A DNA stretch of 63,245 nt, taken from the NCBI GenBank assembly GCA_905236775.1, contig CAJOOM010000175.1:1-63245 (forward strand), in the 5' to 3' direction. Numbering within the stretch: position 1 is the first letter of the stretch; every line of letters starts with the position of its first letter. A program made the position numbers and the translations under genes. This DNA comes from Candidatus Gastranaerophilales bacterium. GTDB taxonomy: Bacteria > Cyanobacteriota > Vampirovibrionia > Gastranaerophilales > Gastranaerophilaceae. The notes under the pieces are model-generated. The model had not been told where the DNA came from and did not search any database. It was given only the letters and a program-made list of their open reading frames with translations. Below are positions 2,861 to 55,911 of the stretch, one piece after another.

Positions 2861-2919
2861 TTGAGAAATTCCGCGTAAAGTGCTTGAAGAAAGGCTCATA
2901 GAGTCTACCCCCCCCCTAA

Positions 2920-2965
2920 ATTTACCCCCATATTTACCCCTATATTTACCCCTTTATTTACCCCT
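2920..2965. repeat. 12-bp-period tandem repeat with ATTTACCCC core
   Basis: Four units; the core recurs near 50203-50221 and, inverted, at 58032-58053. Confidence 0.8.
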
Positions 2966-3997
2966 TTATTTTTCTTCTCTAGCTTTTTTGAGTAAGGCAT
3001 CATCATTTGCGTGTTCTGCAAGCGGAGACGGTATAAATAAATCTAAATACCTTCTGATTGCATATTGGTCTGTCATACCTGAAATATAATCTGTAACTAT
3101 TTGCGGAATCTCATCAGGAGCATAACAAGATTGCAACATTTCTGTATAATATTCAAATAACGATTTAATAATATTTCGGGCTTTCTTTTCTTCTGCTTTT
3201 GCAACAGGGTCAAGATATACATTGTCAAACATCCATGTTCTTAACTTTGTAACATAAAACCAACCCTCTTCAGACATTTCTACACTTGGTTTATCTGTAG
3301 AATTTGTAATAACATCCGTAATCATTTTTCCAAGTCTCGTAGACTGATTGGAGGTAAAATATTGTACACAATCCTTAGGTAAATCGTCTTCTGATATAAT
3401 TCCGGCGCGTACAGAATCTTCTATATCGTGATTTATATATGCTATTTTGTCAGCATATTGTACAATTTGGGCTTCCGGTGTTTTTGGTTTGTAGCCCCAG
3501 GTATGTGTTAAAATCCCATCTATTACTTCTTGACAAAGATTCATATCTTCTAAGATTTCTACCACCCTTACAGATTGGAGATTATGATGAAAACCATTCG
3601 GAAGCAATGAATCCAGAGTTGATTCACCACAGTGACCGAATGCTGTATGCCCCAAATCGTGACCTAAAGATATAGCCTCAACTAAATCCTCATTTAACCT
3701 CAAAGCTCTTGCCATAGTTCTGCCGATTTGAGAGACTTCTAATGTATGCGTTAATCTGGTTCTAAAATGATCATTGTAGGGAGACAAAAAAACTTGAGTT
3801 TTGTGCTTTAAACGCCTAAAAGATTTTGAATGAAGAATTTTATCTCTGTCCCTTTGAAATTCAGTTCGTATTTCAAACTTATCTTCTCGCGGTCTTTTTC
3901 TGCCTTTAGATTCCTTACATTTTGTTGCATAGGGACTTAAGAAATTATATTCTCTTTCTTCTAATTGTTCTTTTATACTTTTTAATTGGGTATCCAT
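2966..3997 (-). CDS. dgt: dGTP triphosphohydrolase-like HD protein
   Basis: FQRDRD, RRLKHKTQV, RTRLTHTLEV, GHDLGH and DYISGMTD; start moved to ATG 3997. Confidence 0.9.
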   Translation of the reverse strand: MDTQLKSIKEQLEEREYNFLSPYATKCKESKGRKRPREDKFEIRTEFQRDRDKILHSKSFRRLKHKTQVFLSPYNDHFRTRLTHTLEVSQIGRTMARALRLNEDLVEAISLGHDLGHTAFGHCGESTLDSLLPNGFHHNLQSVRVVEILEDMNLCQEVIDGILTHTWGYKPKTPEAQIVQYADKIAYINHDIEDSVRAGIISEDDLPKDCVQYFTSNQSTRLGKMITDVITNSTDKPSVEMSEEGWFYVTKLRTWMFDNVYLDPVAKAEEKKARNIIKSLFEYYTEMLQSCYAPDEIPQIVTDYISGMTDQYAIRRYLDLFIPSPLAEHANDDALLKKAREEK

Positions 3998-4887: not shown

Positions 4888-6208
4888 AGAAAAGAAAAAA
4901 AACAGAGTTGATAAAAAAGAAGAATTAAAAAAAGAGTTATTAGCATACATGAGGACTGCTTGTATAGCATTTTTAGTTGGAACTCTAATTGCTGTCCTTT
5001 TATCATTTCACGCAAGAAGTGAAATGATAAAGAATTTGTACGAAAATAAAGAAGAAAAATCTATTATAGAAAGGCAAATTGCACAACAGATTGTTTCTAA
5101 AACTGATTTTATAAAATCATTAAATGGTAAAAATTATGCTATTTGTATGAAAGTCGGACAACTTTATGAAACGGCAGGAGAATATCAAAAAGCAGAATAT
5201 GCATATCATCTTGCTTTGCAAAAAGTAAAAGATAAAATTTATACTCCATACTACAGACTCATAGTAGTATATATTGCACAAGATAAAGTTGATGATGCTG
5301 AAAAATTAATTTCTCAAATACATGACTCAAATAATTTAAACTTAATTCTTGTAAAAACTCGCTCTTATATTGTATTGGGTGACAAATATTATTCAGAAAA
5401 TAAATTTTTAAAAGCTGCATCGAACTATGAAAAAGCAATGTACTATTATTCAAGACTAAAAAAACAAGACAAGATTGTATTAAAATCGATTAAACAAAGA
5501 TTAATAGATTCATATAGAGAAGCTGCTACAGTAATCATTAAGTATGGATACAATTCTGATGCAGTAAGATTCTTAAAAAAAGCTCTCAAATATGATCCGA
5601 ATAATGACGATATAAAATACAGACTTGCAATTGTTTATGCAGATTTAGATCCGATAAAATCCGTAGAATACTTTGAAAAATTAACAAAACAGATTCCTCA
5701 AAATATAGATTACAATGTTTATTCCAGAGCTTTGATGAAAGCTGCAAATATAGAAGATATTAAAGGTAACGGAACTAAAGCTAAATACTACAGGTATAAA
5801 GTTCATTCATTGGAGTTATTTGTTAATAACAAAGTTGTGTACAAAGATGACATTGATATCTTTTTAGATTCTTTTGAAATAAAGAAAACATTATTTAAAT
5901 ATAGGTTAAATGCAAATTTTAGATTTAGGAATAATTCAGCAAACACTATATATAAAATGACAACTGAATTCATATTAAGACAAGGTAATAAAGAGAAAGA
6001 AAAAATCGTATTAAAGAATATTAATAAAAATAATCCGTTTTTCTCAAATGGCGGAGAATTAAAAAATATTGAAATCGAAATGGGCAAAAATATTTATACT
6101 AAACGAGAACTTGACAAATATTATATAGACATTTTTATGTACAAAGATCCTCAATATAAAACACTTGTAGGTACATTTAAACTTCCTGACAAAAATATAG
6201 GTGAATAA
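4880..6208 (+). CDS. Membrane-anchored TPR protein
   Basis: N-terminal hydrophobic helix followed by TPR-like repeats. Confidence 0.7.
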   Translation: MIKEKKKNRVDKKEELKKELLAYMRTACIAFLVGTLIAVLLSFHARSEMIKNLYENKEEKSIIERQIAQQIVSKTDFIKSLNGKNYAICMKVGQLYETAGEYQKAEYAYHLALQKVKDKIYTPYYRLIVVYIAQDKVDDAEKLISQIHDSNNLNLILVKTRSYIVLGDKYYSENKFLKAASNYEKAMYYYSRLKKQDKIVLKSIKQRLIDSYREAATVIIKYGYNSDAVRFLKKALKYDPNNDDIKYRLAIVYADLDPIKSVEYFEKLTKQIPQNIDYNVYSRALMKAANIEDIKGNGTKAKYYRYKVHSLELFVNNKVVYKDDIDIFLDSFEIKKTLFKYRLNANFRFRNNSANTIYKMTTEFILRQGNKEKEKIVLKNINKNNPFFSNGGELKNIEIEMGKNIYTKRELDKYYIDIFMYKDPQYKTLVGTFKLPDKNIGE

Positions 6209-12723: not shown

Positions 12724-12735
12724 AAAGGAGGTAAC

Positions 12736-12822
12736 GTGAATTAGTTAATAAGAGCAAAGTTAATAAGTTAATAAGATTTTAAAATCACTTATTTACTTAT
12801 TCACTTATTCACTTATTCACTT
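12736..12822 (+). repeat. Octamer-repeat hairpin cassette between SD and ATG of flgB
   Basis: (GTTAATAA)n arm and (CTTATTCA)n arm; near-identical copy at 50051-50134 on the minus strand. Confidence 0.85.
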
Positions 12823-12829
12823 TTATTAT

Positions 12830-13312
12830 ATGGACTTAATAACAAACAGAACAATGAATATCACTAAGCTTGCGATGGACGGTTTAATTGACCGCCAGCA
12901 TGCTATTGCTTCAAATATTGCAAACGTTATGACACCCGGATTTCAAAGAAAAGAAGTTGCTTTTGAAAGCCAACTTGCTGAAATTCAAGAAAAAGCAGAC
13001 TTAAAAGATTATATAAAAGGGCAAAACAGCATTGAGTATAAACCTCCTGTTTTGGATGTGTTTACTGGTGAAATTCATAAATACAGAATCCCGACTCTTC
13101 AAGAAAAGGCTTATTTAAAGTCAAATATCTATGATCAATTCAAGCCTCAATTGGTTACAGATATATATAGCGGAACAGACCATCACGGAAATAATGTTGA
13201 ATTAGAACGTGAAATGATGGATTTGTCAAAAACCGGTACAAAATATATGGTACTTTCTAATCTAGAAAGAAGAAACTTCACAGGACTAAGCGAAGTAATC
13301 AGAGGACAGTAA
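12830..13312 (+). CDS. flgB: Flagellar basal-body rod protein FlgB
   Basis: IASNIANVMTPGF; GNNVELEREM. Confidence 0.9.
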   Translation: MDLITNRTMNITKLAMDGLIDRQHAIASNIANVMTPGFQRKEVAFESQLAEIQEKADLKDYIKGQNSIEYKPPVLDVFTGEIHKYRIPTLQEKAYLKSNIYDQFKPQLVTDIYSGTDHHGNNVELEREMMDLSKTGTKYMVLSNLERRNFTGLSEVIRGQ

Positions 13313-18187: not shown

Positions 18188-18213
18188 CTTATATAAAAAA
18201 TTCCCTTTTTTAC

Positions 18214-18370
18214 TAAACGGAGTTACTTGTTTAACTTCGTAAAGTCTTATTTACCCCTCCTTTTTCAATAAACGGAGGCACTTGGCAAAGCTTCGTCTTG
18301 TTACATTTACCCCTCTTTTTTCAATAAACGGAGGCACTTGGCGAGGCTTCGTAAAGTCTTATTTGCCCCT
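18214..18370. repeat. Three tandem 55/56-bp family A units
   Basis: Units start TAAACGGAG at 18214, 18269 and 18325. Confidence 0.9.
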
Positions 18371-19120
18371 TTATTTTACAAAAAAGCTTGCATTAATATT
18401 TGCATAAACCTTAATTACTCCGCTTGAAATTGATGTAGACTGAGGAGCGCCTTCTGCGCTATCAGCGGTAGCAGCAAGCATATTTTTTGCCATATAAAAT
18501 CTTGGAGTAGAATAGTTTGACTGTTCAGTGCAGCTTATATCCATAGATCTTATTCCGTCAAGGTTTCCGCCTACACCTTTAGCAGCAATACTTGCTCTGG
18601 TATTAGCTTTTTTTGTTGCAATTTCTATTAATGAATTGCATTGTGATTCATAATTTGATACTGAAAAATTAAGTGAATCAATATTAGTAGCCCCAGCTTC
18701 CGTTGCTTTATCTATCATTGAACCGAGTTTGTCAAGAGATTTTGTATGTACGGTTACTCTATTTGAAACTTCGTACTTATCAAGTGTTCTTTTATTTCCG
18801 TTGTAATTGTATAATGGTGTAGCATTATAATTCGATGTCTTTATATAATCACCGTTTGCTGTATTAATTTGTTCATTTAAAATATTGTATATCTTTTCTG
18901 AAATATCCTTATTCATAAGAGATGCTTTTTGCATTGATTTATTATCATATGTTTTTACAGCAAAAGAAAGTTCTGCCGTATCAGGAGCAATTTCTGTATT
19001 CGCTGTTGTTGAGATTGATATATAACCTCTTTCCTTATCATTTGTTTGTGCAGCTTTTGCTGTTAGCATGCCACCTGCTATAATTGATAATACTGCAATT
19101 AGTGCTACTGTTTTTTTCAT
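18371..19120 (-). CDS. SIMPL/DUF541 domain periplasmic protein
   Basis: Signal peptide; PDTAELSF, AGATNIDSLNF. Confidence 0.85.
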   Translation of the reverse strand: MKKTVALIAVLSIIAGGMLTAKAAQTNDKERGYISISTTANTEIAPDTAELSFAVKTYDNKSMQKASLMNKDISEKIYNILNEQINTANGDYIKTSNYNATPLYNYNGNKRTLDKYEVSNRVTVHTKSLDKLGSMIDKATEAGATNIDSLNFSVSNYESQCNSLIEIATKKANTRASIAAKGVGGNLDGIRSMDISCTEQSNYSTPRFYMAKNMLAATADSAEGAPQSTSISSGVIKVYANINASFFVK

Positions 19121-48724: not shown

Positions 48725-50044
48725 TTATTTTCTCATTGTTTTTCTATACCAATAATGTATTGCTCTTGCTACTCGATTAGATGAATGTCTTACCAACCCT
48801 TGTTTATTTTCTTGAATAAGTTTTTGAGAAACTACTTCAACTCCGATTGGTGCTATATTTTCCATATCCAAACGAACAGGAATAGAGCCGGATTCAGCAT
48901 AACCTTTTGAAATATTATCCGGAAGAGCATTGTTTACAAGCACTGCGTCTATAATTTTTTTACCTTTTGCATGCTTTAATAGAGCATTAATATGGCTTGC
49001 AACAGTATAATCAGTTGTTTCTCCCGGTTGAGTCATAATATTACATACATATATTTTCTTAGCTTTTGATTTTTCTATTTCTTCTGCTATACCAACGACA
49101 AGAAGATTCGGTATAACACTTGTATATAGACTTCCCGGGCCAAGAATAATCAAATCAGCCTCTTTTATAGCATTCAAAGATTCCTCAAGAGCTTTACAAT
49201 TTGCAGGCTCTGTGAAAAGTTGTTTTATTTGCCCATGTGCTTCCGGTATATTAGACTCACCATGTATAATTCTTCCATCTTCAAATTGTGCACCAAGTTT
49301 CATATCATCTAATGTAGCAGGAAGAACCACACCTCTTATATTAAGTACTTTTGAAGATTCTTTTATAGCTTTTACCATATTTCCGGTAATAGCACATAAA
49401 GCTGTTAAAAATAAATTCCCAAAACTATGACCTTCAAGTCCTTCGCCGGTTTTGAATCTGTATTGAAAAAGTTCGGTAATTAAATCTTCATCATCGCCAA
49501 GGGCAGCAATACAGTTTCTTATATCACCTGGAGGCAAGATTCCCATTTCATTTCTTAATCTTCCCGAACTTCCGCCATCATCACCGACCGTTACAATTGC
49601 GGTTATGTTACTTGTATATTTTTTGATTCCCCTGAGCAGCATTGATAATCCTGTTCCACCGCCTATAGCAACGACTTTTGCGCCTTTGTTAAGTTTTCTT
49701 CTTCTATATAATTTTTCTAAAAGAGATGAATTTCCTTGAGCAGAATTCATATCCATAATTGATAAGGTTGTTTTTTGCCAACCTTTAAAAAATATAACAG
49801 AACCGATTAATATGAATATCGCAGCAAGAAAATTAGATGGCAAAATTAATGCGGCTTTTCTTATTAATTCAAGAGTCAAGTAAATAGGTCTTACGTTAGC
49901 CAGAACCATAAAGCCAAGAACTATCATGATTGAACCTAAAAATATCAAAGCAAACCAACGTTTTACTTCTAATCCCGGAATAAGCCAGCCAACTTCCTTT
50001 TTTACATTAACGTTTTCTTTTATTTCATCTATATTAAATGTCAT
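48725..50044 (-). CDS. yvcK: YvcK/CofD-like gluconeogenesis factor with N-terminal TM region
   Basis: GGGTGL, DDGGSSG, PPGDIRN, GHSFGN, GPGSLYTS. Confidence 0.9.
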   Translation of the reverse strand: MTFNIDEIKENVNVKKEVGWLIPGLEVKRWFALIFLGSIMIVLGFMVLANVRPIYLTLELIRKAALILPSNFLAAIFILIGSVIFFKGWQKTTLSIMDMNSAQGNSSLLEKLYRRRKLNKGAKVVAIGGGTGLSMLLRGIKKYTSNITAIVTVGDDGGSSGRLRNEMGILPPGDIRNCIAALGDDEDLITELFQYRFKTGEGLEGHSFGNLFLTALCAITGNMVKAIKESSKVLNIRGVVLPATLDDMKLGAQFEDGRIIHGESNIPEAHGQIKQLFTEPANCKALEESLNAIKEADLIILGPGSLYTSVIPNLLVVGIAEEIEKSKAKKIYVCNIMTQPGETTDYTVASHINALLKHAKGKKIIDAVLVNNALPDNISKGYAESGSIPVRLDMENIAPIGVEVVSQKLIQENKQGLVRHSSNRVARAIHYWYRKTMRK

Positions 50045-50050
50045 TTTCTT

Positions 50051-50134
50051 TAAGTGAATAAGTGAATAGGTGAATAAGTGAATAAGTGGTTTTAAAATTC
50101 TTATTAACTTATTAACTTTGCTCTTATTAACTTA
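50051..50134 (-). repeat. Octamer-repeat hairpin cassette between SD and ATG of yvcK
   Basis: 84 bp, TAAG...CTTA ends; second copy of the flgB cassette. Confidence 0.85.
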
Positions 50135-50230
50135 TCTCCTTTCTTTCTAAATTTTCAATTTTCCATTCTCTTAGTGCCTTGGTGCCATAGTATCTTAATC
50201 CCTTTACCCCTATTTACCCCCATTTTCAAT

Positions 50231-51025
50231 TTATTCAACCCAGCCTGATACTTTAGCATTAATATAATTTACCGGCAAAGGTGTAATCAATCGCTTTGCT
50301 TCCTTAATCAAATCTATAGCACCATTATACTTATTTGAAAAATGAATTGTATTTACTTCACACATACTTACTCCGCCTAAATTATTACGAATTTGTGAAG
50401 TATGCAAAAGGTGTTGTAATCTTTTTATCATCTCGAAATTATTAACATTATCCGGAACTGAATAATCTACCGTTAAATCCGGATTATAAGTTTTTTCCAA
50501 ACATAATTCCTGTGCTATAGGAATTCCTACATAGTCACCAACTTTGGATGTAATATCACCCATCGGTGCATAATATACAAGCCAATCAGAACATTTTTTT
50601 ATTGCTTTAGCCACGGAGGCAGCAAAAGTAAAATCTTCTCCGCAAGCTTTATACATTGCGCCATGTGGTCTTACATGTTCAATACTTAGTCCGTATGCTT
50701 TTGCAAATGACATAATTGCACTTACTTGATAAACAACAAGCGCTTCAAGTTCATCTTCCTTTAGTTCTACAGGTCTATATCCAAATCCTTGAATATCATT
50801 AAACCCAATATGCGCACCTATTGCTACATTTTTTTCTTTTGCTCTTAAAAGAGCATTCTTAATTGTTATCGGATCACCGGCATGGAATCCGCATGAAATA
50901 TTAACAGAACTTACATAATCTAAAAGTTCAAATTCTTGATTATTTTTATATACTCCGTAACTTTGTGCTAAGTCACAATTAAAATCTATGTTCTTAATAG
51001 TTTTCTTTTCTATAACTTCTTGCAT
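50231..51025 (-). CDS. LamB/YcsF (5-oxoprolinase A-like) protein
   Basis: IDFNCDL, NISCGFHAGD, HVRPHGAMY. Confidence 0.85.
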   Translation of the reverse strand: MQEVIEKKTIKNIDFNCDLAQSYGVYKNNQEFELLDYVSSVNISCGFHAGDPITIKNALLRAKEKNVAIGAHIGFNDIQGFGYRPVELKEDELEALVVYQVSAIMSFAKAYGLSIEHVRPHGAMYKACGEDFTFAASVAKAIKKCSDWLVYYAPMGDITSKVGDYVGIPIAQELCLEKTYNPDLTVDYSVPDNVNNFEMIKRLQHLLHTSQIRNNLGGVSMCEVNTIHFSNKYNGAIDLIKEAKRLITPLPVNYINAKVSGWVE

Positions 51026-51683: not shown

Positions 51684-51832
51684 ATGCGAACTCACTCCGT
51701 TATTTATTATCCCTGTATATTTAAAGAATTTTTTTAATCAAAAATTGCTCATTTAAAAAATATTTGTTACAAATCTTAATCAATAAATTCGGCACTAAAA
51801 AGCGGAGGACGGTTCTATAAAAGGCACTAAAA

Positions 51833-51880
<48 letters not shown>

Positions 51881-51972
51881 TTTTTCAAAAGGCATTAGGG
51901 CAATAATGGAATAAGTTCATTTACAAAAATTTATCATTTGAAATTAAAATGTATTTACATTAGAATAGAGGT

Positions 51973-55717: not shown

Positions 55718-55793
55718 AAAATGATTTTAGCATAAACAAGTTCTCCTCTAACTATCATAACTAGAGAAGAAGACTTTCTACTGCTTTAAAACC

Positions 55794-55855
55794 ACTTTCC
55801 ACTTTCCACTTTCAACTTTCCACTTTCAACTTTCCATTTTCCATTTCCCATTTTT
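55794..55855. repeat. Heptamer tandem repeat TTTCCAC/TTTCAAC/TTTCCAT
   Basis: Directly visible; preceded by ACTGCTTTAAA as at 2771. Confidence 0.9.
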
Positions 55856-55911
55856 CCCCCCCTCATTTACTTTTATGACAAAGTTATAGTAAAATGTATA
55901 TTGGAGAAGAA

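Follow-up and report, generated by a model that had tools for sequence, protein, structure and literature searches.

The yvcK gene of this Candidatus Gastranaerophilales bacterium lies on the minus strand of the window, the whole 63,245-nucleotide stretch of DNA analysed here, and its product is recognized as YvcK (TIGR01826, above cut-off). When re-read, its leader consists of AGGAG, one nucleotide, an 84-nt imperfect hairpin, six nucleotides, and the ATG (Table 1), exactly as written in an earlier sequence-only reading, and removal of the 84 nt does leave AGGAG-7 nt-ATG. The start codon on which that reading relied can also be upheld: YvcK orthologs begin at the same Met, and the cassette carries, at its 5' end (50134), an in-frame TAA that excludes an upstream start. 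The distance between the AGGAG of the Shine-Dalgarno sequence (SD) and the ATG is 91 nt in linear form, and 7 nt after removal or predicted folding of the hairpin. Seven nucleotides is the commonest SD-ATG spacing in this genome (116 genes, with most genes at 5-9).

Table 1. Features of the yvcK leader and of the related flgB copy (positions in the window)
Feature	Position	Strand	Remark
Distal Shine-Dalgarno lead AGAAAGGAG, part of the cassette	50136..50144	-	AGGAG at 50140-50136, then one A
yvcK left arm (35 nt)	50100..50134	-	TAAG, 8-mer, 7-mer AGCAAAG, two 8-mers
yvcK hairpin loop (13 nt)	50087..50099	-	AU-rich; position of the four-helix-bundle gene in full copies
yvcK right arm (36 nt)	50051..50086	-	Four CTTATTCA-type units + CTTA; U.C mismatch against each left unit
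yvcK A-rich spacer (6 nt)	50045..50050	-	Without SD
yvcK (439 aa)	48725..50044	-	ATG at 50044; start backed by orthologs
Rest of the lineage-specific yvcK spacer	50145..50230	-	Remnants like other repeat families (7-mer AAAATTG/AAAATGG, GGGGTAAA units)
Upstream co-oriented gene	50231..51025	-	PxpA/LamB-like, below curated cut-off
Distal SD of the flgB copy	12726..12731	+	AGGAGG, then a two-codon GTG frame
flgB copy: left arm, 12-nt loop, right arm	12736..12822	+	7 nt to the ATG at 12830
flgB	12830..13312	+	FlgB identity confirmed

The region 49900-50300 gives no Rfam covariance-model match at E<=1, the terminator scan returned none, and promoter-like sites occur at chance level. The repeat families to which the remnants at 50145-50230 belong are abundant genome-wide, and were not found in orthologous yvcK spacers. 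As judged by eye, A-rich repeats of 6-7 nt flank the element at yvcK and at an atpF-like gene, and not at atpG or fliG. The assembled contigs, which are the material available, contain no empty yvcK allele of this organism, and the joints across the site come from diverged relatives with other spacers. Coupling through a mini-ORF was considered for yvcK and rejected, as no ATG, GTG, or TTG lies at a working distance behind the SD; in the sequences, short frames behind a distal SD occur at flgB and C174 only.

Arrays of the 8-mer arm units number 48 in this genome, distributed over 36 clusters and nearly all intergenic, versus one in one block-shuffled genome. The copy in front of flgB matches that of yvcK at 94% over 84 nt, and the earlier argument that this recurrence is not due to chance is well founded, given the array counts. 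Elsewhere, two near-identical family copies lie exactly 1000 nt apart (C57:4060-4143 and 5060-5143), both with a downstream SD, and constitute a recent local copy. A second, larger arm family, built on the 7-mers AAAATGG/AAAGTGG/AAAATTG, counts about 60 arrays (in the window, at 2627-2860, 51829-51881, and 55789-55856), the GGGGTAAA family of 10-13-mers is also common (window 2913-2974), and the intergenic gaps of this genome are full of repeat debris. The window further contains three 56-nt tandem repeats at 18205-18385, with a related single copy at 2135-2166, and a 27-nt stretch overlapping tRNA-Gly(TCC) (10-84), which recurs at 188-214 and 344-370, these copies possibly being integration-site remnants.

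A longer copy with a gene in its loop, which the sequence-only reading had suggested looking for, is indeed present. In C33, one arm pair encloses a four-helix-bundle gene (TIGR02436), in front of a gene that we take, from its N-terminus, to be GroEL. The left arms of the C33 and yvcK copies are one base apart, the yvcK right arm being of a variant type, and no TIGR02436 ORF lies between the yvcK arms, which are separated by the 13-nt loop. TIGR02436 matches occur in 54/98 genomes of the genus. At 71 four-helix loci, the gene usually sits between inverted arrays, whose unit varies by genome, and the next gene's SD lies downstream of the right arm; by eye, no gene-bearing copy with the split layout defined below was seen at these loci, a few of which are cut by contig ends or armless. 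Since the arms are kin to those of C33, and since four-helix genes are bracketed by arms genus-wide, the yvcK hairpin is, from sequence, most likely a gene-less descendant of the four-helix-bundle cassettes. No reverse transcriptase or Y1 transposase was found in this genome.

The gap before the GroEL-like gene (L034, L036-L064, L351-L390) holds a four-helix cassette in many species, with a different unit in each and with proteins sharing 50-83% identity with this genome's copy, which suggests that, at this one site, both arms were replaced again and again or changed quickly and jointly. The second four-helix gene (C64, L035) has a right arm of the 7-mer type. In a further cassette (L353, G056:C3:17840-18740), the right arm runs in frame with the N-terminus of the next gene, presumably one with an RfbD-like start, and is, therefore, either coding or the holder of the start codon.

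The arrangement seen at yvcK was assessed over 57 distinct right arms followed by an ORF, the split class being defined by an ATG within 14 nt and no SD between. A strong SD is found upstream of the hairpin in 32/36 split-class arms versus 4/21 other arms, and in 27/30 versus 3/20, Gastranaerophilales relatives included, once the seven loci found by a query holding SD + ATG are left out. The contrast also appears in this genome alone (11/13 split-class loci versus 2/10 other arms, p 0.003) and when the reduced set is collapsed per gene (15/18 versus 3/16, p 4e-4), these p-values being overstated because the copies share descent. The proposal of an element class associated with ribosome-binding sites (RBSs) is supported. 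About half of the family copies have a normal SD downstream of the arms instead. The AGAAAGGAG lead precedes 14/32 split loci versus 5/551 ordinary proximal SDs; motif counts are used here, as a comparison of SD energies is biased by selection on the 5-nt motif.

By our rule, 545/1096 genes of this genome have no proximal SD, and the distal motif is present in 35 of these 545, most split loci counted in, both counts being approximate because gene starts were taken from a first-start ORF rule. As half of the genes lack a proximal SD, a cassette-bearing ATG may not need one. A genome from the same order has the standard anti-SD at its 16S 3' end; in this genome's assembly, the 16S 3' end was not found.

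The 11 split hosts in this genome include yvcK, flgB, fliG, flhA, atpG, asd, uppP, an ABC ATPase, a histidine kinase, and the atpF-like gene, the last being named from its position only; no common function is evident. At recR and lpxC of this genome, and at two flgB orthologs, the arm lies at the ATG and a strong distal SD is missing. A scan that did not use the repeat motif yielded four more split loci, one of them with another unit type. The latter (C110:6370-6516) combines the split layout with a different 8-mer unit and a stem of 145 nt and -40.6 kcal/mol, in front of a gene that is presumably FliR-like; it is an exception to the weak-stem trend described below, and constitutes the strongest test case. 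A loose SD-gap-ATG pattern, run over 98 genomes, returned mostly noise and was discarded. In one RNA run, made up of short pieces only, none was listed as bridging a split cassette.

When the SD-to-ATG segments are folded, linear distances of 81-142 nt are predicted to be reduced to one stem and 3-15 unpaired nt in 31/32 split loci, the 32nd giving 6 nt with the correct SD. Shuffled sequences give a single-stem layout of 3-15 nt in 216/1280 cases. The exact spacing of 7 nt emphasized in the sequence-only reading is, thus, found at yvcK, but it does not characterize the family, in which the predicted folded spacing varies and is 14 at flgB. Similarly, the two deviant units of the yvcK arms do face each other, as that reading stated, but they are not complementary; the CC of the third right unit, seen in 21/52 arms, is a trait of the family.

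The yvcK stem is modest (-15.3 kcal/mol), with a U.C mismatch in every 8-mer pair, and its z-score is -0.4 when the 141-nt context is folded and, with our own shuffle, -4.7 for the SD-to-ATG segment. Two near-equal folds (-15.3 and -15.1 kcal/mol) are predicted, one of which pairs part of the SD; in unconstrained local folds, slippage of the right arm leaves the SD about half paired. Stems of the split family have a median of -17 kcal/mol, and their SD and AUG are predicted to be more open than those of ordinary RBSs (0.011 versus 0.001). Unbroken helices of split copies have a median of 7 bp, versus 11.5 bp for other family copies, a difference that is significant across species and not significant within this genome alone (7 versus 10 bp, p 0.12). 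RNAalifold on 16 copies gives -0.8 kcal/mol and 9 pairs in a slipped register, with no compensatory change, the repeat arms aligning ambiguously. By eye, decay is often further advanced in the left arm than in the right one.

Filled and empty orthologous sites indicate what was inserted. Among the 97 genomes of the genus, the cassette is found at yvcK in none of the 42 readable orthologs. In 28 of them, the upstream stop lies 2-5 nt before the ATG in 16 cases, and short spacers are present in 12, 7 of which have AGGA or GGAG near the ATG. At flgB, 22 of 29 orthologs have a stop within 3 nt of the ATG, and arms at the ATG are present in 3, one with a strong distal SD. The cassette is found at atpG in 4/29 other genomes, and at asd in 1/29. 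Presence is patchy between close species, and fliG offers the longest series: 14/30 orthologs carry a cassette, this genome included (13/29 others), measuring 54-115 nt in linear form and a predicted 3-17 nt when folded. Both arms of the fliG cassettes shrink or change unit together, and the unit begins with the SD right after the upstream stop. On a fliG tree of 28/30 rows (two cassette-free rows were missed by the start pattern), 8 changes are needed, at least 5 of which are forced by well-supported branches.

As empty sites at yvcK, flgB, and fliG commonly have a stop codon 0-5 nt ahead of the ATG, the SD came with the insertion; the opening of the fliG unit with the SD and the enrichment of AGAAAGGAG in split loci likewise make the SD part of what moves. 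These empty sites speak against the view, implied by the earlier reading, that the cassette was inserted into a pre-existing SD-ATG spacer, whose spacing it would "restore", although at yvcK itself the insertion may have entered an SD gained earlier in this clade. In relatives (L081, L083, L088, L192, L314, L315, L319), the spacers at atpG, asd, and fliG also contain unrelated REP-like palindromes and longer tandem hairpin repeats; such variety makes these junctions hot spots for the insertion of several kinds of element.

The explanation that we consider probable is that the yvcK hairpin is a gene-less descendant of a four-helix cassette that acquired an SD, and that it acts as a predicted portable split ribosome-binding site. 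The recurring unit consists of the SD, left arm, loop, right arm, and a short A-rich spacer; it directly abuts the start codon of unrelated genes, near which no SD is left. On the mRNA, the arms would pair and loop out about 85 nt, and a 30S subunit bound to the distal SD would span the base of the stem and meet the AUG at a near-normal spacing, as in T4 genes 38 and 25. In this way, a gene could tolerate an insertion that cuts it off from its native SD or from the stop codon to which it was coupled. With less support, the regular U.C mismatches may limit the helices to about 7 bp, short enough for the ribosome to melt the base of the stem and perhaps also to prevent RNase III from severing the SD from the gene. 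RNase III, which is encoded in this genome, needs longer helices, and internal loops hinder its cutting. The mismatch could equally be explained by inheritance from one chimeric founder. Recombination between repeat arms, perhaps with a role for the four-helix protein, is the best guess for the copying route.

It seems unlikely, in comparison with this split site, that the AUG initiates without SD pairing, by means of the A-rich spacer, S1, or scanning/re-initiation, with a distal SD that would only load ribosomes or stabilize the mRNA in a STAB-SD-like way and a hairpin that need not stay folded. The share of genes without a proximal SD in this genome fits such a mode, as do recR, with its arm and no distal SD, the apparently better preservation of right arms, and a distal non-initiating SD documented about 129 nt upstream of cry3A in the accessible part of PMC4113751. 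Nevertheless, a pure stabilizer should be as common beside a proximal SD, where it is rare (the contrast of 27/30 and 3/20 above), and the arm lengths change together. Moreover, STAB-SD acts by blocking RNase J1, according to the same text (PMC4113751), whereas no match to RNase J (TIGR00649) over the cut-off was found in any of 6 genomes (this one, 94% complete, and five relatives). Shared descent, to which the stereotyped AGAAAGGAG lead points, and the repeat debris that fills the intergenic gaps would also suit a neutral passenger, whose founder chanced to include an SD and whose copies spread without the SD or the stem mattering. This we hold to be very improbable, as the fliG SD persists while the arms diverge or change unit, the SD is nearly absent where a proximal one exists, and the hosts include atpG and asd.

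The sequence-only reading had also raised a shared translational switch, in which a register slip of the right arm would hide or free the SD under the control of temperature or of a protein, such as the four-helix bundle. The two near-equal yvcK folds and the flagellar nature of several hosts (flgB, fliG, flhA) are compatible with this idea, and the predicted opening at yvcK increases with temperature (0.025 at 20 C, 0.24 at 37 C). The same rise, however, is 11-fold over the 32 split loci versus 37-fold over 80 ordinary RBSs, a weaker predicted response than at sites of the usual kind. No relationship links the hosts as a whole (ATP synthase, asd, uppP, an ABC ATPase, yvcK), the cassette is missing from all the readable yvcK orthologs and patchy elsewhere, and a register slip is inherent in any tandem repeat. 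A shared thermosensor is, therefore, not supported, and a regulatory switch in general appears improbable. Kinship to the intervening sequences (IVSs) of 23S rRNA, cassettes that are excised by RNase III (PMC4990558, accessible part), together with the presence of the enzyme in this genome, brings in a last mechanism, namely that the stem is cut from the RNA and the ends stay together or are joined, bringing the SD up to the AUG. IVS removal leaves the rRNA fragmented rather than rejoined, according to the same source (PMC4990558), and the split copies have the shortest helices of the family, which makes this mechanism scarcely credible.

If the split ribosome-binding site is real, the limit on structure between SD and AUG (85-140 nt) would be several times that of the T4 examples, genes scored as SD-less may own a distant SD, and a non-coding selfish element could occupy the start codons of core genes without silencing them. 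A bolder version, which we put forward tentatively and hold to be somewhat doubtful, is that a selfish repeat-arm element became a mobile, self-contained initiation module, which supplies the SD itself, loops out as much as about 140 nt, well beyond the T4 cases, escapes RNase III through its mismatched stem, and has repeatedly taken over core genes (atpG, asd, fliG). A literature search, in which few subscription journals were represented, found no published description of the element, and PMC5524665 contained nothing that bears on it. The new points are the link between four-helix cassettes and a split RBS, the looped-out length, and the series of filled and empty orthologous sites.

Several known systems share part of these features. 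As in Bacillus thuringiensis cry3A, whose STAB-SD is a strong SD situated about 100 nt ahead of the start codon (PMC4113751, accessible part), the SD here is distal; unlike that element, which is non-initiating and needs RNase J1, it occurs mainly where no proximal SD exists, in genomes in which RNase J was not found. ORF-bearing 23S rRNA IVSs with an S23p/four-helix-bundle protein have complementary, repeat-bearing ends around a gene (PMC4990558, accessible part; TIGR02436), a layout that the C33 copy has as well. The yvcK copy differs in lying between a pxpA-like gene and yvcK, without an ORF and with mismatched arms, and excision is known for IVSs only.

The TAACTGA repeats known from Beggiatoaceae (PMC4679880) and, separately, the GGGNATC repeats (PMC4692102) similarly form short tandem arrays, often of about four units, between co-oriented genes, and TAACTGA sets mostly abut start codons without an SD (PMC4679880). 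They are described as direct repeats with a different unit, and no partner arm or distal SD is reported in the accessible parts of these papers. A split-RBS-like module may also lie behind SD-less starts that follow short tandem repeats in other phyla; for the Beggiatoaceae repeats abutting such starts (PMC4679880), this predicts that a partner arm should be present, together with an SD lying about 90 nt upstream.

At the split RBS of E. coli thrS, a long hairpin stays folded and is accommodated by the ribosome (PMC3936740, accessible part), as is proposed here; that hairpin parts an upstream single-stranded region from the rest of the site, and is not placed there between SD and AUG as at yvcK. 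The closest parallels are the split RBSs of T4 genes 38 and 25, in which the SD-AUG distance falls from 22 to 5 and from 27 to 11 nt, and stem-spanning 30S initiation at gene 25 is backed by reporter and DMS work (PMC3014915, accessible part). As there, the SD is too far away in linear form, a stem would restore a working spacing, and the arrangement is lineage-restricted (PMC3014915). Unlike these single-gene cases, the present one is read from sequence and predicted folding, which would bring 54-142 nt down to about 3-17 nt, with a looped-out length three to four times that of T4 and a stem of mismatched tandem repeats that recurs at no fewer than 11 unrelated genes.
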